Program-made: the position numbers and the translations under genes | Shown: positions 12,601-61,607 of the stretch, piece after piece | Numbering within the stretch: position 1 is the first letter of the stretch | How the letters are laid out: every line of letters starts with the position of its first letter | Origin: Mobula birostris | Taxonomy: Eukaryota | Reading direction: 5' to 3' | Assembly: GCF_030028105.1 (NCBI RefSeq) | Contig: NC_092395.1 | Span: 1,512,057-1,576,056 of the forward strand | DNA: 64,000 nucleotides | The notes under the pieces: model-generated | The model's input: only the letters and a program-made list of their open reading frames with translations | Database searches by the model: none | Told to the model about the DNA's origin: nothing

Positions 12601-15600
12601 TTAAAAAAAAAGTGAGGTAGTGTCCAAAGATTCAATCTCCATTTAGGAATCGGATGGCAGAGGGGAAGAAGCTGTTCCTGAATCGCTGAGTGTGTGCCTT
12701 CAGGCTTCTGTACCTCCTACCTGATGTTAACAGTGAGAAAAGGGCTTGCCCCGGGTGCTGGAGGTCCTTAATAATTGATGCTGCCTTTCTGAGACACCGG
12801 TCCCTGAAGATGTCCTGGGTACTTTGTAGGCTAGTGCCCAAGGTGGAGCTGACTAGATTTACAATCCTCTGCAGCCTCTTTTGGTCCTGTGCAGTAGTCC
12901 CTTGCCCCCCACCCCCCTCCCCCACCCATGCCAGACAGTGATGCAGTTTGTCAGAATGCTCTCCACGGTACATCTATAGAAGTCTTCGAGTGTATTTGTT
13001 GACATGCCAAATCTCTTCAAATTCCTAATGAAGTATAGCCACTGTCTTGCCTTCTTTATAACTACATCGATACGTTGGACCAGGTTAGATCCTCAGAGAT
13101 CTTGACACCCAGGAACTTGAAACTGCTCACTCTCTCCACTTCTGATCCCTCTAGGAGGATTGGCATGTGTTCCTTCATCTTACTCTTCCTGAAGTCCACA
13201 ATCAGCTCTTTCATCTTACTGACGTTGAGTGCCAGGTTGTTGCTGCGGCACCACTCCACTAGTTGGCATATCTCACTCTTGTATGCCCTCTCGTCACCAC
13301 CTGAGATTCTAACAACAATGGTTATAACATCAGCAAATTTATAGATGGTATTTGGGCTATGCCTAGCCACACAGTCACATGTAGAGAGAGAGTAGAGCAG
13401 TGGGCTAAGCACACACCCGAGGTGCGCCAGTGTTGATCATCAGTAAGGAGGAGATGTTATCACCAATCCACACAGATTGTGGTCTTCCAGTTAGGAAGTC
13501 GAGGATCCAATTGCAGAGGGAAGTACAGAGGCCCAGGTTCTGCAACTTATCAATCAGGATTGTGCGAATGATGGTATTAAATGCTGAGTTATAGTCAATG
13601 AAAGGCATCCTGACGTAGGTGTTTGTGTTATCCAGGTGGTCTAAAGCCATGTGGAGAGCCATTGAGATTGCATCTGCCATTGACCTATTGTGGCAACAGG
13701 CAAATTACAATGGGTCCAGGTCCTTGCTGAGGCAGTTCAGTCTAGTCATGACCAATCTCTCAAAGCATTTCATCACTGTCGATGTGAGTGCTACTGGGTG
13801 ATAGTCATTAAGGCACATGCGGTGATAATAAACCTGATTCTGATTGTGCATGCTTTTTCCACTGAGGTTGAGTTAGACTGCACTCAATGGGTTAAGGATG
13901 AAAGATTAAATGTTTAAAGGTAACATGAGGAGAAACTTCTTCAGTGTCTGGTGAGAACCTGAATGAGCTGCCAGTGCAAGTGGTGAATGCAATTTCGATT
14001 TCAATGTTTGAGAGAAGTTTGGATAGGTACATGGAAGGGAAGGCTATGAAGAGCAATGGTCCAGATGCAAGAAAATGGGACTAGGCAACTTGAATGGTTT
14101 GGAACTGAATGGATGGGCTGAAGTCTGTTTTTGTGCTGTAATTTTCGATGACTCTGACCTGTCTTTGAAAAGTGCGAGATAAGCTAAAAAGTTAAGCCAT
14201 GCCTCTGTAGGACTTTATTTCTTGGAGCATACAAGACTGAGGGGTGATCTTACCGAGTTGTGATAAAATCATGACGAGCTTAGAAAGGTTGAACTCTGCC
14301 ATGGATGGTCTCAAACCCGGCTGTGAAAGGAGGAGAGTTGGGCATGGGGCTAGCAATCCTATTCTGTAAAAACCCAGTGCTACAGAAACACCAACAGAAG
14401 CTCCAAAGACCTCAATCCTGGGAGAGGAAGGATACAACAAGAACCTGGAGACAATGTGAAAGACTGGCCCAGGACAGAGGACTCTGGCAAGCTACTGTCA
14501 GAAGCCCATGCCCCAGTAGAAGAAGAAGATAGGTGGAAGACATAGAGTTGGGAAATGAAGAACAGGGCACAGATTAAAGGTGAGAGGGGAAAGATTTAAA
14601 GGGGACCCAAGGGGCAACTTCTTCACACAGAGGGTGGTGGGAAGACAATGAGCTGCAGGGGGAGGGTACAATTACAACATCTAAAAGACACTTAGACAGG
14701 AACACGGACAGGAAATGTTTAGAGGAAATGCAGGCAAACAGACCCAACTGAAGTCAATATGGTCAGCATGGATGAATTGGGCTGAAGGGTTTGTTTTCGT
14801 GCTGTACAACTCAATGACTATGCCACATCGATAAGATTAGCCTGGGCTTAGCATGGCCAAGTGGTCGTTCAACACTGTGAGAGATTTGGAAGATTATTAT
14901 ATAAATGCTAGAATAATTGTGAGAAATTAATCTCCATACCCCCTCAAAATCTTAGTAGAAGAGAACCTGGGCTTGCTTCCCCTGCTACAACCCCCCAAAC
15001 TTCCACTGTAAAAGCACTGTACCTGCGGACTTCCCATGTGACGGTTCATCGCCAACATAATCAGGTCTGTTCCTCCAGCATTGACGATCGCATCCTTAAC
15101 CTCGTCATTACCTGCGATAGCTCGAAATGCACCCAGCACCTGCCTAACCAGCTCCTACAGTTTGTGGGGGGACAGAGAAACAGGAAGGAAAAAACAAAAT
15201 CAGTCATTGCCATTTCTGCCACAGTGCTGCAGGTCTCATTCGGACAGAGGTTACTATGGTAGCCAGCATGAGCACACAGTGTCTTAGGGGTGCCATGATA
15301 GTGTAGCAGTTAAATAAAATGAAACAAAAAAAGCAGGGCCAGTATATTTGCACATGGCCAGACAGATTTACCAACTGCAGACATGCCAGCACAGTCTGAA
15401 CAGGAACTCCCTCCAGAGGCACAAAAGGTTAAGCAGCTTCCCAGCTAATCTACTAGAAGATCAGCCAGCTATACTGAATTGGGTGTTATGTAATGAACCG
15501 GAGGCAGTTAGGGAACTTAAGGTAAAGGAACCCTTCGGAGGCAGTGATCACAATATGATTCAGTTCAACTTGAAATTTGACAGGGAGAAAGTGAAGTCTG

Positions 15601-18600
15601 ATGTAGCAGTATTTCAGTGCAGTAAAGGAAATTACAGTGGTATGAGAGAGGGCTGGTCCAAACTAAACTGGAAGGAGATGCAGGGAGGGATGACAACAGA
15701 GCAGCAATGTCGTGAGTTTCTGGGGAAAATGAGAAAGGTGCAGAATAGATGTATTCCGAAAACAAATAAATACTTAAATGTTAAAATAGTACAAATGGAA
15801 ATTCAAAGCAAATAGAGAATTAACACAAGTAAAGGGAAAGATTTGGGAAAGGGATAAAAAATGGAAAAATTAAGTAAATAAGTACATAGGGATTGGATAA
15901 TTATGTCTGCGGGCAGGAGCAAGCATGAACAAATTAGGATATAAACACCTACAATGGTTGTTACATAGGCTTATATACAACATTTTGGACCAGTGGAAAT
16001 GGTCCAGAAGAGTTATATGGAAACTATTATTACCATTTTTCTTAACAACTAATACCATTACTTAGCCTAATAGATTAGAATTACCACAGTACATAATTAT
16101 CTATTTAAGTGTCTAATTTCCTTTTATATCATCTCAATGTGTACTTAAGAATGTATAAATAATTATAGTTTTATACATATAAAAAAATGGAAAAGGTTAT
16201 ATGTGTCAAAAAGTACATGATATTTGTGAATTCCTTATCCAAATAAAAATAAAATTTAAAAAAAAGAAAGTTGGAGGGGGAGGGGGAGATCCAAAATGAT
16301 AGGAGAAGACAGGAGGGGGAAGGATGGAGCCAAGAGCTGGACAGGTGATAGGCAAAAGGGATACAAGAGGATCATGGGACAGGAGGTCCGGGAAGAAAGA
16401 CAAGGGGGGGGGGGGGACCCAGAGGATGGGCAAGGAGTATATTCAGAGGGACAGAGGGAGAAAAAGGAGAGAGAGAGAGAATGTGTGTATGAAAATAAGT
16501 AACAGATGGGGTTCTCCAGCCTCATTTTCTCGCAGTTCTATATCCACTCACATCTCTCTCTTATTTTTGTTAATTAATACCGAATATTGAAAAGCCTAGA
16601 TACAGTGGACGTGGACAGGATGTTTCCAATAGTGGGAGAGCCTAGAACTAGAGGGTATAGCTTCAGAATACAAGGGTATCCCTTTAGAACAGAAATGAGG
16701 AGTAATTTCTTTAGCCAGAGAGTGAATCTGTGGAATTCATTGCCACATATAGCTATGGAAGTCAAGTCATTGAGTATATTTAAAGCCGAGGTTGATAGCT
16801 TCTTGAATAGTCAAATTTTATTGGGAGAAGGCAGGAGAATGGGGTTGAGATGATTAAGAACTCAATCATGATGGAATGATGGAGCTGACTTGATAGGCCA
16901 AATGGCATAATTCTGCTCCTATGACTTGTGGTCCTGTGGTCTTACGGCTTTAATTCAGCCACAAATAGTCTTTACTTTGCAGATATTGAGGGTAGTAGTG
17001 GAGACTGTAGGATATAGGTTAGCCAATTGTTCAGAAGTTTGTTTGAGAGAAGTGTTCAATGGGAGAACGACTCTTTGGTAACACACAAACTGCTGGAGGA
17101 ACTCAGCAAGTTAGGCAGCATACATAGATGGGAACAAACAGTCAATATTTATGTCTGAGATCCCTCATATCACTGCCCAAGTATAAATTCACAATTTGTA
17201 ATGATGACATGAAATTCATTTGTACAAAGGTTTCATAATGTTATTTTTAGGTGTGAGAATTGTATTTTAAATAAATCTAGGGAGTCTGTAAAAAAAAAAA
17301 AGGAAATTCAAAGCAAAAAGTAAAAGCAAAAGAGAGGGCATACAACAAAGCAAAAATTAGCGGGAAGATAGAAGATCGGGAAGCTTTTTAAAAGCTACAG
17401 AAAACTAAAAGGATCATTAGGAGGGAAAGATGAAATATCAAAGCAAGCTATCAAACAATATCAAGGTAGATAGAAAAAGCTTTTTCAAATATATAAAAAA
17501 TGAGAGATGAAAGTGGATATAGGACCGCTAGAAAATGAGGCTAGAGAAATAACGGGGACAAGGAGATGGCAGATGAACTAAGTGAGTATCTTCCATCAGT
17601 CGTCACAGTGGTAGACACTAGTAGTGTGCCAGCTGTTGAAAGGTGTGAGGGAAGAGAAATGAGTGCAGTTACTATTACAAGGGAAAGAGTGTTCAAAAAG
17701 TTGAAAGACCTAAAGATACATAAGTCACTTGAACCAGATGAACTGCACCCTAGGATTCTGAAAGAGGTAGCGGTAGATATTGTGGAGGCATTCGTAATAA
17801 TCTCTTAAGAATCATTGGACTCTGGCATGGTTCCAAGAGGTAATGTTGTAGCTGTATAGGACCCTATTCAGACCCCATTTGGAGTACTGTGCTCATTTCT
17901 GGTCGCCTCACTACAGGAAGGATGTGGAAGCCATAGAAAGGGTGCAGAGGAGATTTTACAAGGTTGTTGCCTGGATTGGGGAGCATGCCTTATGAGAATG
18001 GGTTGAGTGAACTAAGCCTTTTCTCCTTGGAGCGACGGAGGATGAGAGATGACCTGATAGAGGTGTATAAGATGATGAGAGGCATTGATTGTGTGGATAA
18101 TCAGAGGCTTTTTCCCAGGGCTGAAATGGCTGCCACAAGAGGACACAGGTTTAAGGTGCTGGGGAGTAGGTACAGAGGAGATGTCTGGGGTAAGTTTTTT
18201 AACTCAGAGAGTGGTGAGTGTGTGGAATGGGCTGCCGGCAACGGGTGGTGGAGGCGGATACGACAGGGTCTTTTAAGAGACTTTTGGATAGGTACATGGA
18301 GCTTAGTAAAATAGAGGGCTATAGGTAAATCTAGTAATTTCTAAGGTAGGGACATGTTCGGCACAACTCTGTGGGCCGAAGGGCCTGTATTGTGCTGTAG
18401 GTTTTCTATGTTTCTATGGTTCCAGAGGACTGGAAAATTGCAAATGTCACTCCACTCTTTAAGAAGGCAGCAGAAAGGAAATTATAGACCAGTTAGCCTG
18501 ACTTCAGTGGTTGGGGAGATGTTCAAGTCAATTGTTAAGGGTGAGTTTATGGAGTACTTGGTGACATAGAACAAGATAGTCATAGTCATAGTCATACTTT

Positions 18601-21600
18601 ATTGATCCCAGGGGAAAATGGTTTTCGTTACAGTTGCACCATAAATAATAAACAGTAATAATAATAGAACAAAGTCAGCATGGTTTCCTTAAGGGAAAAT
18701 CCTGCCTGATGAACCTGTTGGAATTCTTTGAGGAGATTACAAGTAGGATAGATAAAGGGGATGCAGTGGATGTTGTATATTTGGACTTTCAAAAGGCCCT
18801 TGACAAGGTGCCACACATGAGGCTGCTTACCAGGTTAAGAGCTCATGGTACTACAGGAAAGTTATCGGCGAAGTTCGAGCACTGGCTGATTGGTAGATGG
18901 CAGCGAGTGGGAATAAAAGGATCCTTTACTGGTTGGCTGCCAGTGACTAGTGGTGTTCTGCAGGGGTCAGTGTTGGGATCGCTTCTTTTTATGCTGTATA
19001 TCAATGAGTTAGATGATGGAATAGATAGCTTTGTTGCCAAGCTTGCAGGTGATACAAAGGTTGGAAGAGGGGCAGGTGGTGTTGAGGAAACAGGAAGGCT
19101 GCAGAAGGAATTAGACAAATTAGGAGAATGGGCAAGAAAGTAGCAAATGAAATGCGATGTTGGAAAATGCATGGTCATGCACTTTGGTAGAAGAAATAAA
19201 TGTGCAGACATTTTGTTAAATGTGGAAAAAATCCAAAAATCTGAGATGCAAAGGGACTTGGGAGTCCTTGTGCAGAACACCCAAAAGGTTAACTTGCAGG
19301 TTGAGTTGGTGGTGAGGAAGGCAAATGTAAGTGTGGGACCCATAGTAATGTGGAGCATATTAATGGACATTGGATACCCCCCTAATTTTCTTATATTATA
19401 TTCGTATTATTTTTATTGCTTTGGGTTGTTATTTTGTTCATTCACAATTTGATTAATGTTCAGTTGCACTAGCAACGGTAATATTTTAGTGGGTTGGTTG
19501 ATGGTTAAGAGGGGCAAAGCTTATACAAGCACTTGGGGCAGCTGAGGGGTCCTGGGGGGCACGGGAGTGCGCACGTGATGGAGTAGACGGAGACAGCCCG
19601 GCAGCATGCATGGAAAGCCGATGCGCTGTAGTCCGGTATTTCCAAAAAGGAAAATAAAGACGTTATTTTAAACTTCTGCATGCCTGGAAGTCCCTTTTGT
19701 GTCCAAGTGTGCAACATAATGCTACCATTAATTTCAAGAGGTCTAGAATACAAGAGCAGGGATGTGATGCTGAGGCTTTATAAGGCACTGGTGAGGCCTC
19801 ACCTTGAGTATTGTGAACAGTTTTCGGCTCCTGATCTAAGAAAAGATGTGCTGGCATTGGAGAAGGTTCAGAGGACGTTCACAAGGATGATTCCAGGAAT
19901 GAGGGTTACCATACGAGGAGTGTTTGATGGCTCTGGGTCTGTACTCGCTGGAATTCAGAAGGATGGGGGGAATCTCATTGAAACCTTTCGAATGTTGAAA
20001 GACTGATACAGTGTAGATGTGGGAAGGATGTTTCCCATGGTAGGGGTGTCTAGAACAAGAGAGCACAGCCTCAGATAGAGGGGCATCCATTTAAAACAGA
20101 AATGCGGGGAAATTTCTTTAGCCAGAGGGTGGTGAATTTGTGGAGTTTGTTACCACAGGCAGCTGTGGAGGCCAGGACGTTGAGCGTATTTAAGGCGGTG
20201 ATTGATAGGTTCTTGATTGGCCACAGCATCAAAGGTTACGGGGAGAAGGCCGGAGAGTTGGGAAAATAAAGGATCAGCCATGATTGAATGGTGGAGCAGA
20301 CTCAATGGGCCAAAATGGCCTAATTCTGCTCGTACGTCTTATGCTAATTCAGCATCAGCCATAGACAGTGCTCTCAACTTGCTGGTCTTGGTCATGGAGA
20401 ATAGGGTTGAGAGAGACAATAAATCAGCCATGATAGAATGCAGGAACAGACTCAATGGGCTGAGTAGTCTAATTATGCTTCTGACCTATCGTCGTCTGGT
20501 CAAACGAGGAATTGGTCAACTGACTGGTTCTAGGCACAGAATCACAACTCGTCCCATCCAAAGTTTCCCACCACTTACACCTTCCTTTTCCTCAAAGTGC
20601 GAACCTCAAGTTTTTGGTTCATTTTCTTCTCAACACCAGCCGCTTTTCCAAATGCTGTCCAGCCACCTTTCCTTTCCTCCCACTCCAGCACCAGAAGTAT
20701 TTCCAGTTGCCAGATCTCTACACTCACTCCACCATGGACAAGCCCAGATGGGAAAGGAGGAGGGTTGTGCATTGGGCTAGCAACCCAATCCCGTAAAAAC
20801 CCAGAGCTCAGAAACGCCAACAGAAGATGCAAAGACCTCATCCCTGGGAAAGGAATAATCTTTGAAGATGGGTTACACCTGGGGGCAACGTGAAAGACTG
20901 GCTCAGATCACAAAATTCTGGCAAGCTGTTTTCGGCACTCAATGCCCAGTAGTGGTGATGGGCCCAAGAAGACCTCTACACCTACGGTCTGCGAAAATAA
21001 TTTTTACTGCTTTCCTTTACCTTCGTAGGTCTTCATTAACACCTTTCTTTGAATAGAACTTCCAATCCCCTCCACGTCACTCTCTCATGATGTGCTTGGG
21101 ATATTTGTTAATTAAATTTTAATTGCGTTTAGATATGAATATTGTGTAAAATTAATCAGATTACTACATTGCATGCTAGAAAGCACACCACGGTAATGTA
21201 GTGATTAGCATGACACCATTACAGCTCGGAGTTTGGCGTTCAACTCCGATGTCATCTGCATGGAGTGGGTTTCCTCCCACAGTCCAAAGAGGTACAGTTT
21301 AATTGTCCTGTGATTTTAGGCTAGGGTTAAATCGAGGGTTGCTGGTGGAGCGGCTCGAAGGACCAGAAGGGCCTATTCAGCACTGTATCTCAATAAACAA
21401 TAAATACGAAAGTCTGAATGCCCTTCCTTCACCGATATGGGCACAGCTCATAAGGTCTGCTGAGACCACTGTCAACCAGATTTCTAGTGCTTGGGAGAAT
21501 TGCTACACATTTAATTGATTACAGCAGTGTACACTGGATAAATTCCTCTGTTAATAACTATTACAAACTAATACATTTTTGTAGTACTGTAGTACTATTA

Positions 21601-24600
21601 GTAATGTTCCAATTTGTTCTGTCTTTCATGTAAATACATAATTTGTTTCTCAGTTAGTCTTCTTTATACCTCTAACTAGTTTCATGACACTTTGGCTGAT
21701 TGGAGCAGCCACTTGATTGGGCCAAAATGTACTAGTCCTGATGTGTCCCAAATCACTAGAATCTACTGTGTTAAAAAAAACTCCCAACTCCTAATTCATC
21801 TAATCAGTGACTGCTGTAAATGCCAACCCTGGGCATTCTCTCTTCTCCCCTCTCCCACTGGGCAGAAGACACAAAAGCATGAAAGTACACATTACCAGGT
21901 TCAAGGATCACCTCTACAGCACTTTTATAAGACTATTGACTGGGCCTCTTGTCCTCATGATCTACCTCATTATGACCTTGCACTTTATCATTTACCCACG
22001 TTTTTCCAATAGCTCAAAATTCAAGATTTAAGTTTATTTGTCGGCTGTGCAAATGGTGTTCAGCTCACTACTCCACAGGGTTTACTCACTTCAGTGCTGA
22101 GCTGACTCTGTAGCCATGGCCTGTAAATATCAGCTCTCACCTCAGCGCTGAACTGGCTCTGTGACTGTGGACTCTGCCATTAATGCTCTGTGTGCTATTT
22201 GTTTACTTTTTTATTGCTTGCACAATTTGTTCTCTTTTCACCCCACACATTGGGTGTTTGATGGGCTTTGCTGTGTGGCGTTTTTTTAAAATGGGTTCTA
22301 TTGTGTTTCTTTCTTTTGTGGCTGCCTGCAACAAGACAAATCTCAAGGATGTATACAGTATACTGTACATACTTTGATAATAAACATACTTTGAACTTTG
22401 TACATTTTTATTCTACATTGCTATTGTTTTATCTTGCTCTACCTCGGTGCACAGTGTAATGATTTGATCTGTCTGAACTGTACACAAGACAAGGTTTTCA
22501 CTGTATCACGGTATGTGTGACAATAATAAACCCATACCAGTTCCAATTTAAGGCCCCTGGCTTTGGACAACTCGACAAACAGAAACATCCTCTCTATATC
22601 TACCCTACTGAACCCCTGCTTAATTCTGAGACCCTCTAATCTAGCGGTGGTGGAAATGAAGGAGGGGTTACACACCCGATGTATCGAGCAGTGGTGGAAA
22701 TGAAGGAGGGGTTACACACCCGATGTATCTAGCGGTGGTGGAAATGAAGGAGGGGTTACACACCCGATGTATCTAGCGGTGGTGGAAATGAAGGAGGGTG
22801 GAAATGAAGGAGGGGTTACACACCCGATGTATCGAGCAGTGGTGGAAATAAAGGAGGGGTTACACACCCGATGTATCTAGCGGTGGTGGAAGTGAAGGAG
22901 GGGTTACACACCCGATGTATCTATCAGTGGTGGAAATGAAGAAGGGGTTACACACCCGATGTTCGATACAGTGGTGGAAATGAAGGTGCAGCTACACACC
23001 CGATGTATCTATCAGTGGTGGAAATGAAGAAGGGGTTACACACCCGATGTTCGATACAGTCGGCCAGCAGAGCAACCATGAAGTTCAGACCTCCCAGATC
23101 CACAATGTCTTGGCAGAACTCATTCCTGACAGCAAGACGCGACAGGGTGCAGCACAGCTCACTGAGGACGGTGGGGTTTTCTGTGAAAGCTGCATTGGAG
23201 AGAAGATAATTGCAATAATAAAACATCTTTCACTGTGCTTTACAATCAATGCATTGTTGTAATACAAGTATGCAGGCTAACTAATTTGGGCACATCTAGC
23301 TCTCAAAGTTTGCCACTATTACATGCTAACTGAAACTCAGTTACAGACACTGTTAGTAAATATACTGTATGGGGATGATACCTAGTTGTATGAGGAGAAA
23401 GATCCTTGGCTTATATGAATCTTGAGCTGGATAGTGGATGTGGGTACAACAAGACATAGGAACATAATTAGGCCATTCCGTCCATCGAGTCTGTTCCGTC
23501 ATTCCATCAACACTGACTTATTATCCCTCTCAAGTCCCATTCTTTTGCCTTCTCCCAGTAACCTTTGATGCCCTTAATAATCAGGAACCTATCAACCACC
23601 GCTTTAATTATACTCAATGTCTTGGGCTCCACAGCCATCCTCGGCAATGAATTCCACTGATCCATCACACTCTGGCTAAGGAAATTCTTCCTCATCTCTG
23701 TTCTAAGTGGACATCCTTCTATTCTGAGGCTGTGCCCTCTGGTCCTAGACTCCCCCACTAAAGGAAACATCCTCTCTACAACCACTCTATCTAGGCCTTT
23801 CAATATGTTGCAATGACAACCCCACCCCCCAATCTTCTAACCTTCAGCGAGTACAGGCACAGAGCTACTAAATGCTCCTCATACATTAACCCTTTCATTC
23901 CCAGGATCATTCTCAGGAACATCCTCTGGACCCTCTCCAACGGCTGCACATTCTTAGATAAGGGGCCCAAAACTGCTCATTATGCTCCAAGAAAGCAGCC
24001 AAGTCAACCTCTCACTCAGTGGCAGCCAAGGAACTAATTATTGACTTCAGGAGGAAAGCGGAGGTCCATGAGCCAGTCCTCACTGAGGAATCAGAGGTGG
24101 AGAGTGTCAGCAACTTTAAATTCTTGGGAGTTATCATTTCAGAGGATCTGTCCTGGGCCAAGCACATAAATGCAATTACAAAGGAAAAAATGGCAGGAGT
24201 TCTAATTCCTTAGAGGTTTGCAAAGATTTGGCATGACATCTAAAAGTTTTGGATAAAATTCTATAGAAGTGCAGTGGACAGATATTGACTGGTTGCAGCA
24301 CAGCCTGGTATAGAAATACCAATGCCCTTAAATGGAAAAACCTACGAAGAGCAGTGGATATGGCCTAGTCCATCACCAGTAAAGTCCTCCACACCATTAA
24401 GCACATCTACACAGAACGCTGTTGTAGAAAAGCAGCATCCATTATCAAGGACTCCCCACACCCCTAGCCAGCTCTCTTCTCATTCTGCCAAAAGGAAAGC
24501 GATGTAGGAGCCTCAGGAACCATATGCCCAAGTTCAGAAACAGTTATTACCCCTCAACCATTAGGCTATTGAACCAAAGGGGATAACTTCACTTGCCCGT

Positions 24601-27600
24601 CATTGAAATGTTCCCACAACCAATGAACTCACTTTCAAAGACTTTCATCTTTCATCTCATGTTCTCGGTATTTATTGCTTATTTTTTTTTTTCTTTTGTA
24701 TTTGCCCAGTTTGTTGTCTTTAGCACATTGGTTGTTTGTCTCTAATGTTGTACAACAAATTGTGCAAATATAAAAGAAAAAAACAAAATAATAATAATAA
24801 ATAAATGATATTGAGCACATCTGAATGGACAAGGAACTCAAACATACTAAATCACTGTTCTGCACTAAATTTGCATACCTTTCCTAATTTATAATCTTTT
24901 ACTATGTATTGCAATATACTGCTGCCACAGAACAAAAAGTTTCACGACTTTCGTCAGTGATATTAAACCTGATTCTGATTCAACAGGTGAATTAGTACCG
25001 GAACCTTTTGCAGCTTCGATGATGACCCGAAGTCCATTGTTCTCCATTACTATCATCTTTGCGTGATCATGGGCGTGGCCAAAGGGCACTCGGATGTCAT
25101 CGTCATAGGTCATGACCCTCAGGACACCAGCCGCCTCTCTGACCACGTCAGCACTGGTGCCATGCCTGACGATAGCACCAGTCAGCAGTGGCAGCATGCC
25201 ACGCTGCACCAGGTCTTGCCGGTTCTGCTCGTGCTTCAGGCAGCTGTGATGGATGGCACGGAAGGTGGCCGCATTCAGAACGGCCAGCTCCTGATGCTGC
25301 TTTAAAATGTCCAGGAGCAAGTGCTGGCCCTCCAAGTCCAGGAGGTCCGGCTGACCGTCCAGAAGAGCAGCCAAGGCCTGGACTCCCTTCAGCAGGCGCT
25401 GACCATCGGACATCATTGTTCTGCAGGAGGACAGCACCGTGGAGTAGGCAGACTTCTCAGCGGCCAGATGGCGGTGAGCAAAATTGAGGCTGCACTGTTC
25501 AGTAAAATGAGTCAGGTGTTCCTCCATTTCATCGAGAGCCAACATATCCAGAGCTTTCTGAAGAGCATCCAGTACCTATAAACACACAATCCATCAATTG
25601 ATAACTCAGAAACAACTTGTGCTTATAAAGAACTACTATCATAATATGGGATGGCACAATAGCACAGCAGTTAGTGTAATGTTACTGGGGTGCATGGGGT
25701 ATCCAGGGAAGGGTATCACCTCTGGTGAAGCGGCTTGCTATGTCCATTCCTGGGCAGCTCACTCAGCTTTGGTCCCCACCAGACATTCAGCTCTCAGCTG
25801 TGGCTCCAAGTAGCTGTTTGCATGTACTGTGACAGCAGAAACATGCTGGTACACTGCTTTGACAGGTGGGCTATACCAGGTGAGGGTAGCCGGTGGCCTC
25901 ATACCCTAGTGAGACCAGGATATGCCTGTCCTAAATATGAAGTCAGCTCTGGTGGACTGGGCAGATGAGATCTACAGTGCGATCCAATGGCCAAGAAAGC
26001 AGTTTTGCAATACTTCGTGGAAACATAGCAAGGCACAAAAGTAGTCAACCAAGGAAGACCCCATTTGTTTTTTTTATTATTTTTTTTAGCCATCCCCCAA
26101 CCTTCAACACCATCCCCCTTCACCTCTCTCCCCCCATCCCTCTCCCCTCCACCAATCAACTGTGTAGTACATACACAGACAAAGTATTCCTATTTTAACA
26201 AAAGATCTTTTAAGTTCGATATCAAATTTGTCCACGTTAAGATTGTGTTTGGTCGTGCATCATTTACTCTTGCTGATGAAAGTTCCAGGTAAGAAGTGTC
26301 CAAAAAGCTCCGAAGCCAGTGAGTATTTGAAATATCATGGGGAGGTTTCCAACGCTGGACTACAATCTTCTTAGCTGCAGTCAGGCCAGCCAGCCAGATT
26401 TTGCATGTTTTCTGCATAAGGGAAAGGTGGGAGTCATCACTTAGAAGATGTACAGCGGGGTCCATTGGTAATTGTACCTGTGAGTACTGATGACCTTCCC
26501 CCACAAACCAAAAACCCCTGGACATTCCCATACAACATGTATAAGGAAGACCCCATTTGTGACGACTACTTGTACCACTGGACCCAGACTTCGGACGTCG
26601 AGAGAGCAGCACCACCCCAGTGCAATGGCCTTTTCACTTTCAAAGCTCTCCCGCACAGGTTTCACTGTCATTGTCGGATACGACGGCGCCACCAACCCAG
26701 GTTCAATTGGCACCACTGTCTGTAGGGAGTTTGTCTGTTCTTCCCATGACCACTTTCCTCCAGAAGCTCTGGTTTCCTTCCATGTTCCACAGACGTTCAG
26801 GTGAGAGGCAGTAAGCTGTGGGCATGCTGTGTTGGTGCCAGAAACCGGGCGACACTTGTAGGCTGTCCCCAGCACATCCTTGGACTGCGCTGGTCATTGG
26901 CGCAAAGAATGCATTTCACTCTGTGTTTCAACGTTTCGACATAATAAATAAAGCCAATCTTAAAAAAACTTGTCACAGAACTTGCCAATAAAATTTGACA
27001 GAGGAAAGAGTCAACAAAATCACTTTAGGGCACATCTGATAACAGAGAGTTGGAAATGATTAGGAAAGGAATTCTATAATCCCCAATGCCTTCAGCTTTT
27101 TATGGAAAACACAAAGGATGATGGTGTCAATGTGCAAATGAATATGCAATCAAATAGTGTTTTATGTTCTATTCAAGCACCTCAAAGCACTGTATACATT
27201 TCAGGACTCAAGATTCAAGACTGTTTAATGTAATTTCCAGAGAACGAAATGACTGTTACTCTGGATCCAATGCAACACAAAAAACACAATAAATATAAAT
27301 ACATAAAACAGCTTATACACATAGATTGATCGTATGTCCAGAAAATGGCACTAGGTAGAGGAATGTCTGTACATCAGGTAACCGGCAGGAAATGATAAAG
27401 CAGCAGTGGTTGCGAATGTAGAGGTGGGTTAGTGGGTGGAAGTGTTGATCAGATTTACTACTTGGGTAAAGTAACTGCTTTTGAGTATGCTGGTCCTGGC
27501 ATGGATGCTACATAGCCTCCTCCACAATGGGAGTGGGACAAACAGTCCATGAACGGGACATGTTACTGACACTTTCCAGCACTGCAGACAGGTGGTAAAG

Positions 27601-35109: not shown

Positions 35110-35334
35110 TCTTCCAGAACTTCACTTTCGGCAACTGTGATAAGATTTCACACTCAATGTACAGGAACGAAATTTTAATATTTTTTACTTTTTTTTAAAG
35201 AATGTTTAAGATTTAACTAGGACAGGTATGTAACATCTTTCTTCAAACATTTCAGGATGGATATATATTTCAGATACCTCCCACCCCCCACCCCTCATAT
35301 AGCTTAATTGAGTCTACCACAGCTTCAAGTTGCA

Positions 35335-38300
35335 GAGGAATGGAAGGTCGGGGTGAGGAAAGGGCCAGGATGGAATAAGGGGGAATGAGGGATGAGTGAA
35401 ATCAGGGAGGCCGGGCAAGGTTGGGATGAGATGAGGAGGATGAGGGAGATCAGGGAGGTGGGCATGGCCGTGTTGGGATGAGATGAGGAGGATGAGGGAT
35501 GAGGGAGATCGGGGAGGCTGAAGCCGGGCAGGGTTGGGATGAGATGAGGAGGATGAGGGATGAGGGAGATCGGGGAGGCTCGGGCCGGGATGGAATGAGA
35601 TGGGGAGGATGAGGGATGCGGGAGATCGGGGAGGCTGAAGCCGGGCAGGGTTGGGATGAGATGAGGAGCATGAGGTATGAGGGAGATCGGGGAGGCTCAA
35701 GCCGGGCCGGGTTGGGATGAGATGAGGAGGATGAGGGATGAGGGAGATCGGGGAGGTGGGCCGGGTTGGGATGGGATGAGGAGGATGAGGGATGAGGGAG
35801 ATCAGGGAGGCTGAAGCCGGGCAGGGTTGGGATGAGATGGGGAGGATGAGGGATGAAGGAGATCGGGGAGGTGGGCCGGGCCGGGTTGGTATGAGATGAG
35901 GAGGATGAGGGATGAGGGAGATCGGGGAGGCGGGCCGGGTTGGGATGAGATGAGGAGGATGAGGGATGAGGGAGATCGGGGAGGTGGGCCGGGCCGGGTT
36001 GGGATGAGATGAGGAGGATGAGGGATGAGGGATGAGGGAGATCGGGGAGGTGGGCCAGGCCGGGTTGGTATGAGATGAGGAGGATGAGGAAGATGAGGGA
36101 TGAGGGAGATTCAGGAGGCTCAAGCCGGGCCGGGTTGGTATGAGATGAGGAGGATGAGGGATGAGGGAGATCGGGGAGGCGGGCCGGGTTGGGATGAGAT
36201 GAGGAGGATGAGGGATGAGGGAGATCGGGGAGGTGGGCCAGGCCGGGTTGGTATGAGATGAGGAGGATGATGAGGATGAGGGATGAGGGAGATCGGGGAG
36301 GCTCAAGCCGGGCCGGGTTGGTATGAGATGAGGAGGATGAGGGATGAGGGAGATCGGGGAGGCGGGCCGGGTTGGGATGAGATGAGGAGGATGAGGGATG
36401 AGGGATGAGGGAGATCGGGGAGGTGGGCCGGGCCGGGTTGGTATGAGATGAGGAGGATGAAGGATGAGGGAGATCGGGGAGGTGGGCCGGGTTGGTATGA
36501 GATGAAGAGGATGAGGGATGAGGGAGATCGGGGAGGCGGGCCGGGCCGGGTTGGTATGAGATGAGGAGGATGAGGGATGAGGGAGATCGGGGAGGCTGAA
36601 GCCGGGCAGGGTTGGGATGAGATGAGGAGCATGAGGTATGAGGGAGATCGGGGAGGCTCAAGCCGGGCCGGGTTGGGATGAGATGAGGAGGATGAGGGAT
36701 GAGGGAGATCGGGGAGGTGGGCCGGGTTGGGATGGGATGAGGAGGATGAGGGATGAGGGAGATCAGGGAGGCTGAAGCCGGGCAGGGTTGGGATGAGATG
36801 GGGAGGATGAGGGATGAAGGAGATCGGGGAGGTGGGCCGGGCCGGGTTGGTATGAGATGAGGAGGATGAGGGATGAGGGAGATCGGGGAGGCGGGCCGGG
36901 TTGGGATGAGATGAGGAGGATGAGGGATGAGGGAGATCGGGGAGGTGGGCCGGGCCGGGTTGGGATGAGATGAGGAGGATGAGGGATGAGGGATGAGGGA
37001 GATCGGGGAGGTGGGCCAGGCCGGGTTGGTATGAGATGAGGAGGATGAGGAAGATGAGGGATGAGGGAGATTCAGGAGGCTCAAGCCGGGCCGGGTTGGT
37101 ATGAGATGAGGAGGATGAGGGATGAGGGAGATCGGGGAGGCGGGCCGGGTTGGGATGAGATGAGGAGGATGAGGGATGAGGGAGATCGGGGAGGTGGGCC
37201 AGGCCGGGTTGGTATGAGATGAGGAGGATGATGAGGATGAGGGATGAGGGAGATCGGGGAGGCTCAAGCCGGGCCGGGTTGGTATGAGATGAGGAGGATG
37301 AGGGATGAGGGAGATCGGGGAGGCGGGCCGGGTTGGGATGAGATGAGGAGGATGAGGGATGAGGGATGAGGGAGATCGGGGAGGTGGGCCGGGCCGGGTT
37401 GGTATGAGATGAGGAGGATGAAGGATGAGGGAGATCGGGGAGGTGGGCCGGGTTGGTATGAGATGAAGAGGATGAGGGATGAGGGAGATCGGGGAGGCGG
37501 GCCGGGCCGGGTTGGTATGAGATGAGGAGGATGAGGGATGAGGGAGATCGGGGAGGCTCAAGCCGGGCAGAGTTGGTATGAGATGAGGAGGATGAGGGAT
37601 GAGGGAGATCGGGGAGGTGGGCCGGGTTGGGTTGGTATGAGATGGGGAGGATGAGGGATGAGGGAGATCGGGGAGGCTCAAGCCGGGCCGGGTTGGTATG
37701 AGATGAGGAGGATGAGGGATGAGGGAGATCGGGGAGGCAGGCCGGGTTGGGATGAGATGAGGAGGATGAGGGATGAGGGATGAGGGAGATCGGGGAGGTG
37801 GGCCGGGTTGGGATGGTATGAGATGAGGAGGATGAGGGATGAGGGATGAGGGAGATCGGGGAGGTGGGCCGGGTTGGGATGGTATGAGATGAGGAGGATG
37901 AGGGATGAGGGATGAGGGAGATCAGGGAGGTGGGCCGGGTTGGGATGGTATGAGATGAGGAGGATGAGGGATGAGGGAGATCGGGGAGGTGGGCCGGGTT
38001 GGGTTGGTATGAGATGAGGAGGATGAGGGATGAGGGAGATCGGGGAGGCGGGCCGGGTTGGTATGAGATGAGGAGGATGAGGGATGAGGGAGATCGGGGA
38101 GGCGGGCCGGGTTGGTATGAGATGAGGAGGATGAGGGATGAGGGAGATCGGGGAGGCGGGCCGGGTTGGTATGAGATGAGGAGGATGAGGGATGAGGGAT
38201 GAGGGATGAGGGATGAGGGAGATCGGGGAGGTGGGCCGGGTTGGGATGGTATGAGATGAGGAGGATGAGGGATGAGGGATGAGGGAGATCGGGGAGGTGG

Positions 38301-41300
38301 GCCGGGTTGGGATAGTATGAGATGAGGAGGATGAGGGATGAGGGATGAGGGAGATCGGGGAGGTGGGCCGGGTTGGGATGGTATGAGATGAGGAGGATGA
38401 GGGATGAGGGAGATCGGGGAGGTGGGCCGGGTTGGGTTGGTATGAGATGAGGAGGATGAGGGATGAGGGAGATCGGGGAGGCGGGCCGGGTTGGTATGAG
38501 ATGAGGAGGATGAGGGATGAGGGAGATCGGGGAGGCGGGCCGGGTTGGTATGAGATGAGGAGGATGAGGGATGAGGGAGATCGGGGAGGCGGGCCGGGCC
38601 GGGTTGGTATGAGATGAGGAGGATGAGGGATGAGGGAGATCGGGGAGGCTCAAGCCGGGCCGAGTTGGTATGAGATGAGGAGGATGAGGGATGAGGGATG
38701 AGGGAGATCGGGGAGGTGGGCCGGGTTGGGATGGTATGAGATGAGGAGGATGAGGGATGAGGGAGATCGGGGAGGTGGGCCGGGTTGGGTTGGTATGAGA
38801 TGAGGAGGATGGGGGATGAGGGAGATCGGGGAGGCGGGCCGGGTTGGTATGAGATGAGGAGGATGAGGGATGAGGGAGATCGGGGAGGCGGGCCGGGCCG
38901 AGTTGGTATGAGATGAGGAGGATGAGGGATGAGGGATGAGGGAGATCGGGGAGGTGGGCCGGGTTGGGATGGTATGAGATGAGGAGGATGAGGGATGAGG
39001 GATGAGGGAGATCGGGGAGGTGGGCCGGGTTGGGATGGTATGAGATGAGGAGGATGAGGGATGAGGGATGAGGGAGATCGGGGAGGTGGGCCGGGTTGGG
39101 ATGGTATGAGATGAGGAGGATGAGGGAGATCGGGGAGGCTCAAGCCGGGCCGGGTTGGTATGAGATGGGGAGGATGAGGGATGAGGGATGAGGGATGAGG
39201 GAGATCGGGGAGGTGGGCCGGGTTGGGTTGGTATGAGATGAGGAGCATGAGGGATGAGGGAGATCGGGGAGGCTCAAGCCGGGCCGGGTTGGTATGAGAT
39301 GAGGAGGATGAGGGATGAGGGATGAGGGATGAGGGAGATCGGGGAGGTGGGCCGGGCCGGGTTGGTATGAGATGAGGAGGATGAGGGATGAGGGAGATCG
39401 GGGAGGCTCAAGCCGGGCCGAGTTGGTATGAGATGAGGAGGATGAGGGATGAGGGATGAGGGAGATCGGGGAGGTGGGCCGGGTTGGGATGGTATGAGAT
39501 GAGGAGGATGAGGGATGAGGGAGATCGGGGAGGCTCAAGCCGGGCCGGGTTGGTATGAGATGGGGAGGATGAGGGATGAGGGAGATCGGGGAGGCTCAAG
39601 CCGGGCCGGGTTGGTATGAGATGAGGAGGATGAGGGATGAGGGAGATCGGGGAGGTGGGCCGGGTTGGGTTGGTATGAGATGAGGAGGATGAGGGATGAG
39701 GGAGATCGGGGAGGTGGGCCGGGTTGGGTTGGTATGAGATGGGGAGGATGAGGGATGAGGGAGATCGGGGAGGTGGGCCGGGTTGGGTTGGTATGAGATG
39801 AGGAGGATGAGGGATGAGGGATGAGGGATGAGGGAGATCGGGGAGGTGGGCCGGGCCGGGTTGGTATGAGATGAGGAGGATGAGGGATGAGGGAGATCGG
39901 GGAGGCTCAAGCCGGGCCGAGTTGGTATGAGATGAGGAGGATGAGGGATGAGGGAGATCGGGGAGGCGGGCCAGGCCGGGTTGGTATGAGATGAGGAGGA
40001 TGAGGGATGAGGGAGATCGGGGAGGCGGGCCGGGTTGGTATGAGATGAGGAGGATGAGGGATGAGGGATGAGGGAGATCGGGGAGGTGGGCCGGGTTGGG
40101 ATGGTATGAGATGAGGAGGATGAGGGATGAGGGATGAGGGAGATCGGGGAGGTGGGCCAGGTTGGGATGGTATGAGATGAGGAGGATGAGGGATGAGGGA
40201 TGAGGGAGATCGGGGAGGTGGGCTGGGTTGGGATGGTATGAGATGAGGAGGATGAGGGATGAGGGATGAGGGAGATCGGGGAGGTGGGCCGGGTTGGGAT
40301 GGTATGAGATGAGGAGGATGAGGGATGAGGGATGAGGGAGATCGGGGAGGTGGGCCGGGTTGGGATGGTATGAGATGAGGAGGATGAGGGATGAGGGAGA
40401 TCGGGGAGGCTCAAGCCGGGCCGGGTTGGTATGAGATGAGGAGGATGAGGGATGAGGGATGAGGGATGAGGGAGATCGGGGAGGCTCAAGCCGGGCCGGG
40501 TTGGGATGAGATGAGGAGGATGAGGGATGAGGGAGATCGGGGAGGCTCAAGCCGGGCGGGGTTGGTATGAGATGGGGAGGATGAGGGATGAGGGAGATCG
40601 GGGAGGCGGGCCGGGCCGAGTTGGTATGAGATGAGGAGGATGAGGGATGAGGGATGAGGGAGATCGGGGAGGCGGGCCGGGCCGATTTGGTATGAGATGA
40701 GGAGGATGAGGGATGAGGGAGATCGGGGAGGCTCAAGCCGGGCCGGGCTGGTATGAGATGGGGAGGATGAGGGATGAGGGAGATCGGGGAGGCGGGCCGG
40801 GCCGGGCCGGGTTGGTATGAGATGAGGAGGATGAGGGATGAGGGAGATCGGGGAGGTGGGCCGGGTTGGGTAGGTATGAGATGAGGAGGATGAGGGATGA
40901 GGGAGATCGGGGAGGCTCAAGCCGGGCCGAGTTGGTATGAGATGAGGAGGATGAGGGATGAGGGATGAGGGAGATCGGGGAGGCTCAAGCCGGGCCGGGC
41001 CGAGTTGGTATGAGATGAGGAGGATGAGGGATGAGGGATGAGGGATGAGGGAGATCGGGGAGGTGGGCCGGGTTGGGTTGGTATGAGATGAGGAGGATGA
41101 GGGATGAGGGAGATCGGGGAGGTGGGCCGGGTTGGGTTGGTATGAGATGAGGAGGATGAGGGATGAGGGAGATCGGGGAGGTGGGCCGGGTTGGTATGAG
41201 ATGAGGAGGATGAGGGATGAGGGAGATCGGGGAGGTGGGCCGGGTTGGGTTGGTATGAGATGAGGAGGATGAGGGATGAGTGAGATCGGAGAGGTGGGCC

Positions 41301-44300
41301 GGGTTGGTATGAGATGAGGAGGATGAGGGATGAGGGAGATCGAGGAGGTGGGCCGGGTTGGGTTGGTATGAGATGAGGAGGATGAGGGATGAGGGAGATC
41401 GGGGAGGCTCAAGCCGGGCCGGGTTCGTATGAGATGAGGAGGATGAGGGATGAGGGATGAGGGAGATCAGGGAGGCGGGCCGGGCCGGGTTGGGATGAGA
41501 TGAGGAGGATGAGGGATGAGGGATGAGGGAGATCGGGGAGGCGGGCCGGGTTGGGTTGGTATGAGATGGGGAGGATGAGGGATGAGGGAGATCGGGGAGG
41601 TGGGCCGGGTTGGGTTGGTATGAGATGAGGATGATGAGGGATGAGGGATGAGGGAGATCGGGGAGGTGGGCCGGGCCGGGTTGGTATGAGATGGGGAGGA
41701 TGAGGGATGAGGGATGAGGGAGATCGGGGAGGCTCAAGCCGGGCCGGGTTGGTATGAGATGGGGAGGATGAGGGATGAGGGAGATCGGGGAGGCGGGCCG
41801 GGCCGAGTTGGTATGAGATGAGGAGGATGAGGGATGAGGGATGAGGGATGAGGGAGATCGGGGAGGCTCAAGCTGGGCCGGGTTGGTATGAGATGAGGAG
41901 GATGAGGGATGAGGGAGATCGGGGAGGCTCAAGCCGGGCCGGGTTGGTATGAGATGAGGAGGATGAGGGATGAGGGAGATCGGGGAGGTGGGCCGGGTTG
42001 GGATGGTATGAGATGGGGAGGATGAGGGATGAGGGAGATCGGGGAGGTGGGCCGGGTTGGGATGGTATGAGATGGGGAGGATGAGGGATGAGGGAGATCG
42101 GGGAGGCGGGCCGGGTTGGGTTGGTATGAGATGGGGAGGATGAGGGATGAGGGAGATCGGGGAGGTGGGCCGGGTTGGGATGGTATGAGATGAGGAGGAT
42201 GAGGGATGAGGGATGAGGGAGATCGGGGAGGCGGGCCGGGTTGGGTTGGTATGAGATGGGGAGGATGAGGGATGAGGGAGATCGGGGAGGTGGGCCGTGT
42301 TGGGATGGTATGAGATGGGGAGGATGAGGGATGAGGGAGATCGGGGAGGCGGGCCGGGCCGAGTTGGTATGAGATGAGGAGGATGAGGGATGAGGGAGAT
42401 CGGGGAGGCGGGCCGGGTTGGTATGAGATGAGGAGGATGAGGGATGAGGGAGATCGGGGAGGCGGGCCGGGCCGAGTTGGTATGAGATGAGGAGGATGAG
42501 GGATGAGGGAGATCGGGGAGGCTCAAGCCGGGCCGAGTTGGTATGAGATGAGGAGGATGAGGGATGAGGGAGATCGGGGAGGCGGGCCGGGTTGATATGA
42601 GATGGGGAGGATGAGGGATGAGGGAGATCGGGGAGGCGGGCCGGGTTGGTATGAGATGAGGAGGATGAGGGATGAGGGAGATCGGGGAGGCGGGCCGGGT
42701 TGGTATGAGATGAGGAGGATGAGCGATGAGGGATGAGGGATGAGGGAGATCGGGGAGGTGGGCCGGGCCGGGTTGGTATGAGATGAGGAGGATGAGGGAT
42801 GAGGGACATCGGGGAGGCGGGCCGGGTTGGGATGAGATGAGGAGGATGAGGGATGAGGGAGATCGGGGAGGTGGGCAGGGTTGGGATGGTATGAGATGAG
42901 GAGGATGAGGGATGAGGGAGATCGGGGAGGCGGGCCGGGCCGAGTTGGTATGAGATGAGGAGGATGAGGGATGAGGGAGATCGGGGAGGCGGACCGGGTT
43001 GGGATGAGATGAGGAGGATGAGGGATGAGGGATGAGGGATGAGGGAGATCGGGGAGGCGGGCCGGGTTGGGATGAGATGAGGAGGATGACGGATGAGGGA
43101 TGAGGGATGAGGGGGATCGGGGAGGCGGGCCGGGTTGGTATGAGATGAGGAGGATGAGGGATGAGGGATGAGGGAGATCGGGGAGGTGGGCCGGGTTGGG
43201 TTGGTATGAGATGAGGAGGATGAGGGATGAGGGATGAGGGAGATCGGGGAGGTGGGCCGGGCCGGGTTGGGTTGGGATGAGATGAGGAGGATGAGGGATG
43301 AGGGAGATCGGGGAGGCTCAAGCCGTGCCGGGTTGGTATGAGATGGGGAGGATGAGGGATGAGGGAGATCGGGGAGGTGGGCCGGGTTGGGTTGGTATGA
43401 GATGAGGACGATGAGGGATGAGGGATGAGGGATGAGGGAGATCGGGGAGGTGGGCCGGGCCGGGTTGGGTTGGGATGAGATGAGGAGGATGAGGGATGAG
43501 GGAGATCGGGGAGGCTCAAGCCGGGCCGGGTTGGTATGAGATGGGGAGGATGAGGGATGAGGGATGAGGGATGAGGGAGATCGGGGAGGTGGGCCGGGCC
43601 GGGTTGGGTTGGGATGAGATGAGGAGGATGAGGGATGAGGGAGATCGGGGAGGCTCAAGCCGGGCCGAGTTGGTATGAGATGGGGAGGATGAGGGATGAG
43701 GGATGAGGGATGAGGGAGATCGGGGAGGCGGGCCGGGCCAGGCCGGGTTGGTATGAGATGGGGAGGATGAGGGATGAGGGAGATCGGGGAGGCGGGCCGG
43801 GCCGGGTTGGGATGAGATGAGGAGGATGAGGGATGAGGGATGAGGGAGATCGGGGAGGCTCAAGCCGGGCCGAGTTGGTATGAGATGAGGAGGATGAGGG
43901 ATGAGGGAGATCGGGGAGGCGGGCCGGGTTGGTATGAGATGAGGAGGATGAGGGATGAGGGAGATCGGGGAGGCGGGCCGGGTTGGGATGAGATGAGGAG
44001 GATGAGGGATGAGGGATGAGGGATGAGGGAGATCGGGGAGGCGGGCCGGGTTGGTATGAGATGAGGAGGATGAGGGATGAGGGATGAGGGATGAGGGAGA
44101 TCGGGGAGGTGGGCCGGGTTGGTATGAGATGAGGAGGATGAGGGATGAGGGATGAGGGATGAGGGAGATCGGGGAGGCGGGCCGGGTTGGTATGAGATGA
44201 GGAGGATGAGGGATGAGGGATGAGGGAGATCGGGGAGGTGGGCCGGGTTGGGTTGGTATGAGATGAGGAGGATGAGGGATGAGGGAGATCGGGGAGGTGG

Positions 44301-47300: not shown

Positions 47301-47850
47301 CGGGTTGGGATGGTATGAGATGAGGAGGATGAGGGATCAGGGATGAGGGAGATCGGGGAGGCGGGCCGGGTTGGGTTGGGATGAGATGAGGAGGATGAGG
47401 GATGGGGAGGATGAGGGAGATCGGGGAGGTGGGCCGGGTTGGGATGGTATGAGATGAGGAGGATGAGGGATGAGGGATGAGGGAGATCGGGGAGGTGGGC
47501 CGGGTTGGGATGGTATGAGATGAGGAGGATGAGGGATCAGGGATGAGGGAGATCGGGGAGGCGGGCCGGGTTGGGTTGGTATGAGATGAGGAGGATGAGG
47601 GATGGGGAGGATGAGGGAGATCGGGGAGGTGGGCCGGGTTGGGATGGTATGAGATGAGGAGGATGGGGAGGATGAGGGATGAGGGAGATCGGGGAGGCTC
47701 AAGCCGGGTTGGGTTGGTATGAGATGAGGAGGATGAGGGATGAGGGATGAGGGAGATCGAGGAGGCGGGCCGGGCCGGGTTGGTATGAGATGAGGAGGAT
47801 GAGGAGGATGAGGGAGATCGGGGAGGCGGGCCGGGCCGGGCCGGGCCGAG
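35335..47850. repeat. ~12.5-kb G-rich modular minisatellite (about 200 units, mostly 54-75 bp) filling ARMC6 intron 1
   Basis: Near-invariant anchor GAGGGAGATCGGGGAGG plus variable slots: CTCAAGCC/TGGGCC/CGGGCC; pentamers GGGCC/GGGTT/GAGTT/GGGAT; GGTATGAGAT; GAGGAGGAT; (GAGGGAT)0-4. Confidence 0.97.
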
Positions 47851-48340
47851 GGAGCGGTCGGTACCTCGACAAACCGCTGGACGAATCGGCCACCTTCACC
47901 CACTTCAGCACCGCCGGCTGTGCAACACTTTTCCCTTCCCCTCTCCCCACCCTCTGGGTCTCCGTAAGACGGCCGATTGGTTCCTATGTACGGCGGAACG
48001 CTTGCCAAACGCACTCACTTCCGGTTCCAGCCTTGGGGCGCGATGAACGACAGAGGAGAGAGGGGAGGGCGGTTTTGTTCTGTTCTGGTTTCTCCCTGCG
48101 GGGTCACACGAAGTTCAAGTTCAGACCGAGGTGCGCCACACAGAACATATACTGTCTGTAACTCACACATTTAACACAAAGTAATATTTCCGCAAACAAT
48201 AAGGTGCATTTACGGCACAAGTTATAAAGTAAGCGGTGTAACGCTGCCGGTGCTTCGTGATGGGACGTGTTTGGTGGTAGGGAGCGCGGTAGTCCGTCTC
48301 CGACCGGGGGAAAGGAGCTCCTCCTGCCTGACCGGTGGGG
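47850..48340 (-). promoter_or_regulatory. CpG-island promoter and probable non-coding exon 1 of ARMC6
   Basis: CpG-rich unique sequence. Minus-strand candidate donors GAG|gtaccg (exon end 47865) and GAA|gtgagt (exon end 48019). CCAAT box at 47976-47980 (minus strand) and ETS motif CCGGAAGTG at 48016-48024. The first coding exon has an upstream acceptor, so a 5' exon is expected. Confidence 0.6.
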
Positions 48341-49873: not shown

Positions 49874-50734
<861 letters not shown>

Positions 50735-55978: not shown

Positions 55979-56839
<861 letters not shown>

Positions 56840-60883: not shown

Positions 60884-61607
60884 GTGTGGGAACGGGATGG
60901 GGTAGTTGTGGGAATGGGATGGGGTAGGTGTGGGAATAGGATGGGGGTAGGTGTGGGAACGGGATGGGGTAGTTGTGGGAACGGGATGGGGGTAGGTGTG
61001 GGAATGGGATGGGGTAGGTGTGGGAACGGGATGGGGTAGTTGTGGGAACGGGATGGGGTAGGTGTGGGAATGGGATGGGGTAGGTGTGGGAACGGGATGG
61101 GGGTAGGTGTGGGAACGGGATGGGGTAGTTGTGGGAACGGGATGGGGGTAGGTGTGGGAACGGGATGGGGGTAGGTGTGGGAACGGGCTGAGGGTAGGTG
61201 TGGGAATGGGATGGGGTAGGTGTGGGAATGGGATGGGGTAGTTGTGGGAATGGGATGGGGGTAGGTGTGGGAATGGGATGGGGGTAGTTGTGGGAACGGG
61301 ATGGGGGTAGTTGTGGGAACGGGATGGGGGTAGGTGTGGGAACGGGATGGGGGTAGGTGTGGGAATGGGATGGGGGTAGTTGTGGGAATGGGATGGGGTA
61401 GTTGTGGGAATGGGATGGGGGTAGGTGTGGGAATGGGATGGGGATAGGTGTGGGGATGGGGATAGGTGTGGGAATGGGATGGGGATAGTTGTGGGAATGG
61501 GATGGGAGTAGGTTTGGGAATGGGATGGGGGTAGGTTTGGGAATGGGATGGGGTAGGTGTGGGAATGGAATGGGGTAGGTGTGGGAATGGGATGGGGGTA
61601 GGTGGGG
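60884..61607. repeat. 22-23-bp G-rich minisatellite (GTGGGAAYGGGATGGGG(G)TAGKT)n, about 32 copies
   Basis: Directly visible tandem units. Confidence 0.95.

Follow-up and report, generated by a model that had tools for sequence, protein, structure and literature searches.

The ARMC6 locus

The window, i.e., the whole stretch of DNA that was analysed, comprises 64,000 nt of Mobula birostris sequence (NC_092395.1), and the ARMC6 gene with its array is read on the minus strand. It contains an intact ARMC6 gene, the coding span of which (9394-35109, minus strand) consists of seven exons encoding 466 aa (35109-34989, 30584-30505, 25575-25005, 23189-23044, 15154-15023, 10736-10599 and 9606-9394), all bordered by AG and GT. 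The spliced translation shows no difference to RefSeq XP_072100560.1, the M. birostris ARMC6 protein, which confirms the gene, the coding exon 4 and the donor that an earlier sequence-only reading of this DNA had named; the protein is intact and has the length of its relatives. A query with the large upstream exon retrieved ARMC6 proteins, those of stingrays being best with 96% and 95% (best 120 of 404 matches), and a Pfam search of the exon 3 open reading frame found no family.

Coding exon 4 (23044-23189, 146 nt) ends in the authentic donor CGG/GTGTGT and is joined in phase 0 to coding exon 5 (15023-15154), whose acceptor at 15154 pairs with donor 23044. Intron 4 in between spans ~7.9 kb and is rich in interspersed repeats. 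None of the six M. birostris RefSeq isoform proteins of the cluster carries an insertion at the exon 4-5 junction, nor do the 15 orthologues examined, of 120 listed; RefSeq proteins are weak evidence on splicing, as isoforms that contain stops need not be listed as proteins. Annotated alternative donor use is found at exon 3, not at exon 4: RefSeq isoforms have two (four ray species) or twelve (M. birostris) additional amino acids there, which match donors 24999 (+6) and 24969 (+36) on the minus strand. The regular exon 3 donor at 25005 (minus strand) pairs very weakly with U1 (-4.4 kcal/mol).

Upstream of the gene, a strongly purine-skewed satellite of 12.4 kb (35438-47840, ~200 copies of a ~59-bp unit) sits between a CpG-rich block (47800-48400) and the ARMC6 ATG exon. 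If a candidate donor on the minus strand (47865) is combined with an acceptor at 35134, the satellite would fall inside an ARMC6 5'-UTR intron; the contig from sequencing run X7 (see below) extends by arithmetic ~74 nt 5' of the ATG, only 25 of which lie behind acceptor 35134. The window also holds two tandem intronless protein-kinase ORFs (49874-50731 and 55979-56836, plus strand; 70% identity over 266 aa), which we take to resemble testis-specific serine kinase (TSSK) paralogues, and a G-rich 23-bp minisatellite of ~32 copies (60884-61608).

A minisatellite built from the exon 4 donor

The boundary between exon 4 and intron 4 is straddled by the first unit of a 44-bp minisatellite of ~9.5 units (22639-23060, minus strand; TRF period 44, scores 306 and 388). 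A 14-mer made of the last seven letters of the exon and the first seven of the intron occurs nine times on the minus strand, within the 64-kb window always inside the array, and is absent from the plus strand; the 9-mer donor has one further occurrence in the window outside the array, at 13419. Positions -7 to +7 around the donor are invariant in all nine units. The last exon-like bases of the copies lie at 23044 (the real donor), 23000, 22956, 22912, 22868, 22824, 22764, 22720 and 22676 (minus strand), i.e., the 14-mer search recovers all nine places given by the sequence-only reading at its coordinates plus 5. Successive copies are spaced by 44, 44, 44, 44, 44, 60, 44 and 44 bp, the single 60-bp step being due to a 16-bp internal duplication (22781-22814, from TRF and the copy positions), and the eight decoys are accordingly offset from the real donor by +44, +88, +132, +176, +220, +280, +324 and +368.

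The most diverged unit is the second one (22963-23006, minus strand), which contains pseudo-donor 1 (22994-23002, +44); it has 10-13 mismatches in 44 positions to all other units, most others showing 0-4, and may be old or recombined. An exact twin of the real donor region, 68 nt long (22905-22972, minus strand; 17 exon and 51 intron nt), contains pseudo-donor 2 (+88) and extends across pseudo-donor 3 (+132). The match to the real donor in the upstream direction amounts to 17 nt for this copy (22956) and to 7 nt for the other seven; the exact 17-nt exon match had been recognised before, and the identity also continues for 51 nt downstream. The twin is probably the product of an 88-bp higher-order duplication.

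The original unit presumably comprised ~7 exon and 37 intron bases, duplicated by slippage and then expanded, and the 88-bp duplication, which took along 17 exon bases and gave rise to the twin, would be a younger event. A crude chance estimate, based on seven arrays (period of at least 20) in the window, six coding donors and 36 starts per donor, yields ~2% per window, so that many cases per genome are expected.

Reality and age of the array

Twenty-four sequencing runs were listed, none of them on record as RNA, and four (X1, X5, X7 and X10) were mapped onto 14950-25150. In the DNA run X1, which represents organism A with a single DNA sample in the form of short-word contigs, the flanking contigs stop at 23031 and 22668, exactly the two positions at which a 31-mer graph of the window predicts breaks; the break at 23031 requires the 68-nt twin to occur in the reads. 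X1 possibly stems from the sample used for the assembly, in which case it tests the assembly, not the population. The DNA run X5 stems from a close relative (organism B), with eight differences in 544 flank bases (~98.5% identity), and its contigs cover 23021-23564 and 22443-22719, running into the array from either side. The contig stop at 23021 fits a repeat that starts at 23050, i.e., one with a 7-base exon part; low depth or a variant may also be the cause of this break.

At least the ends of the array are shared with relative B, and the array presumably predates the split of organisms A and B. The contig break points suggest that its internal structure differs between the two. An assembly artefact could be argued from the possible origin of X1 and from the fact that no listed contig spans the array, but its probability is practically negligible given the predicted contig ends in X1, the patterned differences between units (0-13 letters) and the entry of the relative's contigs from both sides. 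The array is real.

Donor usage in transcripts

X7 and X10 are RNA-type runs, two samples from one study, whose RNA nature was guessed and of which X7 was flagged 'probably DNA'. Record 9 of X10 (1814 nt) and record 23 of X7 (2030 nt) each join exons 3, 4 and 5 with no mismatch, the joined pieces (25150-25005, 23189-23043 and 15153-15021) being contiguous in both contig records; the offset of one base (23043/15153) arises because a G is common to both sides of the junction. The dominant contig, which reports the major form only, thus joins 23044 to 15154 in both RNA-type runs. The major mature ARMC6 mRNA uses donor 23044, and the earlier statement that the most upstream of the nine donors is picked holds for the dominant spliced contig in each of these two runs.

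Contigs lose rare variants, and steady-state RNA conceals forms that are destroyed by NMD. Interspersed repeats dominated the tables (15 of 3,159 joints, 24 of 9,167 loose ends and 32 of 359,049 pieces listed), and only the longest contigs were informative. None of the 15 joints listed, of 3,159, lies at an array donor; this absence is uninformative, since the known exon 3 donors at +6 and +36, which can serve as controls, are likewise missing from the listed rows. After subtraction of the spliced contig, the residual depth per intronic base in the bin 22793-23133 was 4.4 (X7) and 2.1 (X10), the depth of the spliced contig being 49.1 (X7) and 65.4 (X10) and that of three intronic X10 contigs 2.0-6.4. 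This depth arithmetic was discarded as evidence because contig depth is no measure for ranking the parts of a gene, and the larger share of words in X7 and X10 (0.30 and 0.26) was not accepted as a sign of decoy use either.

Consequences of splicing at the downstream copies

Use of the decoys would extend exon 4 from its normal 146 nt to 190-514 nt, pseudo-donors 3-8 (22670-22914, minus strand) accounting for exons of 278-514 nt. As the sequence-only reading had claimed, all eight are unproductive: splicing at +44 or +88 causes a frameshift with a stop in exon 5, after 351 and 338 aa, respectively, and each of the six donors from +132 on takes in a TGA of the exon 4 frame (22948-22950, minus strand), giving an in-frame stop after 337 aa. 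The distance from each of the eight stops to the last junction downstream is 176 nt or more. According to the usual 50-nt rule, stops that far before the last junction mark a transcript for NMD, and all eight decoy products would be NMD targets on this basis.

Every unit contains three GTs, two bases apart, and the secondary GTs at +48 and +90 are in frame and stop-free. Their U1 pairing (-1.9 and -6.3 kcal/mol, vs -8.6 kcal/mol for the main donor) is weak, and the corresponding insertion occurs in none of the six M. birostris RefSeq proteins; they were rejected as used sites on both grounds.

The uniformly unproductive outcome was likewise rejected as a mark of selection. The non-triplet unit of 44 nt is read in three frames, and of the latent donors that lie in coding introns of human genes, more than 98% are preceded by an in-frame stop (PMC3510495), so that the outcome needs no selection. 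Another explanation, surveillance of the reading frame ('suppression of splicing'), holds that the decoys are silent because splicing at them would introduce a stop codon. Six of the eight decoys indeed have an in-frame stop upstream, as do those human latent donors, and removal of the stop has been reported to activate latent donors (PMC3510495). However, the two nearest decoys (+44 and +88) are free of an upstream in-frame stop, and pseudo-sites of the human F7 gene without a premature stop are described as silent, too (PMC1557585), which renders frame surveillance highly improbable here.

Strength, folding and context of the nine donors

Donor strength was rejected as a discriminator, the U1 duplex energy being the same for all nine donors (-8.6 kcal/mol). 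The exon 4 donor is weaker than four of the five other ARMC6 coding donors (-9.1 to -11.6 kcal/mol; exon 3 donor, -4.4 kcal/mol). A latent donor outside the repeat, at 22141 (minus strand) and ~900 nt into intron 4, has a U1 energy of -9.7 kcal/mol vs -8.6 kcal/mol for the real one.

Masking of the decoys by RNA structure was rejected as well, since the real donor is not singled out as more open. The predicted opening energy of the -3 to +6 site varies between 6.0 and 9.1 kcal/mol over four window sizes, with the real donor in mid-range, and only the +44 and +220 copies are consistently more buried; opening the +44 donor is predicted to cost 0.7-1.5 kcal/mol more than opening the real one, and the +88 copy requires 6.4-7.1 kcal/mol vs 6.8-7.6 kcal/mol for the real donor.

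The sequence in front of the donors does differ, as a descriptive contrast of composition and not as a validated measure of enhancer activity. The 73 nt preceding the real donor contain 30% G, three GAA/GGA triplets and one C/U motif, whereas those before decoys 2-8 contain 12-15% G, 0-1 triplets and 9-12 C/U motifs; decoy 1, whose 73-nt stretch overlaps the exon, is intermediate (22% G, one triplet, six C/U motifs). The context of the real donor is closer to that of the other five ARMC6 exon ends (25-37% G, 4-7 triplets, 0-2 motifs).

Why the extra donors may be passed over

The reading that we favour, with a probability of roughly 0.8, is that the extra donors are passed over because the spliceosome settles on the first weak donor that follows real exon sequence, the array being a harmless passenger. 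The nine donors are moderate and equal in sequence, and position would then decide between them. Only the first has an exon acceptor 146 nt upstream and exon-like sequence before it; it is also transcribed first, and the later copies, preceded by C/U-rich repeat, would lengthen the exon. The choice may thus be made by exon definition combined with transcription order. A few percent of transcripts probably use +44 or +88 and are removed by NMD, as judged from the human genes ABCA7 and CBS, and this leak would be largely independent of the number of further copies.

In an alternative reading, a sizeable share of nascent transcripts would be spliced at a downstream copy, most likely the 68-nt twin at +88, and destroyed by NMD, lowering ARMC6 output behind an apparently normal mature RNA. 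With duplicated strong donors, the downstream, intron-proximal site is reported to take ~100% of splicing at distances of at least 45 nt (PMC3413131), and seven of the eight decoys are at least 45 nt away from the real donor (the step in F7 is 37 bp). From -17 to +51, the +88 copy is identical to the real donor, and it is no less accessible in folding; all decoy products have their stops at least 176 nt before the last junction; furthermore, cycloheximide substantially raised stop-containing isoforms of ABCA7 (PMC5954066), and CBS and the interferon-inducible gene 6-16 are cited as using two pseudo-sites (PMC1557585). The proximal bias was, however, reported for strong donors, the upstream (distal) site being active if the downstream one is weak (PMC3413131), and the ray donor is moderate. 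For LMNB2 and PDGF, whose units exceed 45 nt, the authentic donor is cited as the only one used (PMC1557585), and the dominant contig uses 23044 in both RNA-type runs. Such a hidden diversion is therefore considered unlikely.

A further proposal of the sequence-only reading was that copy number acts as a dial: the array would vary among individuals, and more copies would send more transcripts to NMD, tuning the ARMC6 level. In humans, cis effects of tandem repeats on splicing are common (9,537 such repeats catalogued; PMC10078293), the title of a paper cited in PMC2630376 ties the CBS 31-bp VNTR to lower CBS activity, skipping of the downstream exon in ABCA7 does depend on repeat length (PMC5954066), and the break points discussed above suggest that internal array structure differs between A and B. 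Donor choice itself, on the other hand, remained the same in F7 with 1-12 monomers (PMC1557585), use of the second ABCA7 donor is independent of length (PMC5954066), and copies past the second or third are those least likely to be used (PMC1557585). The dial is hence unsupported and very unlikely; if true, it would represent a natural tuning of expression by donor copy number, which F7 and ABCA7 did not show. A further reading is that of an allele-tunable poison switch, in which the +88 twin would capture a substantial nascent share for NMD, with ARMC6 dosage, both among rays and from species to species, depending on units gained or lost. The twin, on which this switch would be based, lies beyond the 45-nt switch distance and seems to be absent in the close relative B; the switch is judged quite unlikely.

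With its spacings of 44 and 88 nt and its 68-nt twin, the ray array is situated where two published rules conflict, namely the upstream-first choice in F7 and the downstream-first choice of strong twins at distances of at least 45 nt; this conflict can equally be addressed with synthetic or human constructs.

Comparison with known systems

The closest counterpart of the favoured first-donor reading is the 37-bp VNTR in intron 7 (IVS7) of human F7, the first unit of which spans the exon-intron boundary and which was studied with 50 minigenes (Borensztajn et al. 2006, PMC1557585). In these constructs, splicing invariably went to the functional donor lying furthest upstream, 1-12 monomers made no change, splicing efficiency fell with distance, and a variant with the -2 to +6 letters of the ray donor was spliced normally (PMC1557585). 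The same layout having been published for F7, the idea of an unexplained or new mechanism in the sequence-only reading is not supported. The ray array shows the traits of the F7 type, i.e., a tandem minisatellite, a boundary-spanning first unit, exact repeats of the donor and the upstream donor in the dominant mRNA, and in both systems the donor is moderate (CGG/gtgtgt in the ray; TGG/gtgggt, in 5-9 identical copies, in F7), the unit is not a multiple of three and no structure explains the choice. They differ in the host (a cartilaginous fish vs human), in unit length (44 bp, at the edge of the 45-nt switch distance for strong twins, vs 37 bp) and in the number of exon bases copied (7-17 vs 4); moreover, every one of the eight main decoys of the ray leads to a stop, which is not the case for two of the F7 pseudo-sites.

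The 25-bp VNTR in ABCA7 intron 18 resembles the ray array in that its C-rich, non-triplet unit holds the donor GT and the donor of the next unit shifts the frame and feeds NMD (PMC5954066, PMC13747324). The second-unit donor accounts for 2 +/- 1% of transcripts, independent of length, and its product is an NMD target, whereas skipping of exon 19 varies with repeat length (De Roeck et al. 2018, PMC5954066). Unlike the ray array with its nine donors, the ABCA7 repeat starts its unit at the GT and has hundreds of copies, and its length affects exon 19 skipping and disease risk.

Donors reiterated in a minisatellite are also cited for CBS intron 13 (31-bp VNTR) and 6-16, in which two pseudo-sites are used (PMC1557585, for CBS also PMC2630376), and for LMNB2 (100-bp unit) and PDGF intron 4 (81-bp unit), in which only the authentic donor is used according to the citing text (PMC1557585). 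As in the ray, use falls within the first one to three donors; in CBS and 6-16, use of the two pseudo-sites is detectable, whereas only the major form is visible in the ray. Latent 5' splice sites, of which there are about nine per human coding intron (Nevo et al. 2012, PMC3510495), are similar in being unused intronic donors less than 1 kb from the real donor, most of them preceded by an in-frame stop. They are chance matches to the consensus, whereas the ray decoys are copies of the authentic donor, two of the eight lacking an upstream in-frame stop. Repeats at exon-intron boundaries have furthermore been catalogued in human duplicated genes (PMC2812944).

All of the mechanistic precedent is mammalian. 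No paper on the ray ARMC6 array was found in the freely accessible literature searched. For the most part, the interpretation is already known from human genes. The importance of the array is modest: a cartilaginous fish is added to a class with at least six human genes on record, an indication that the rule of 'first donor wins' extends to jawed vertebrates in general.
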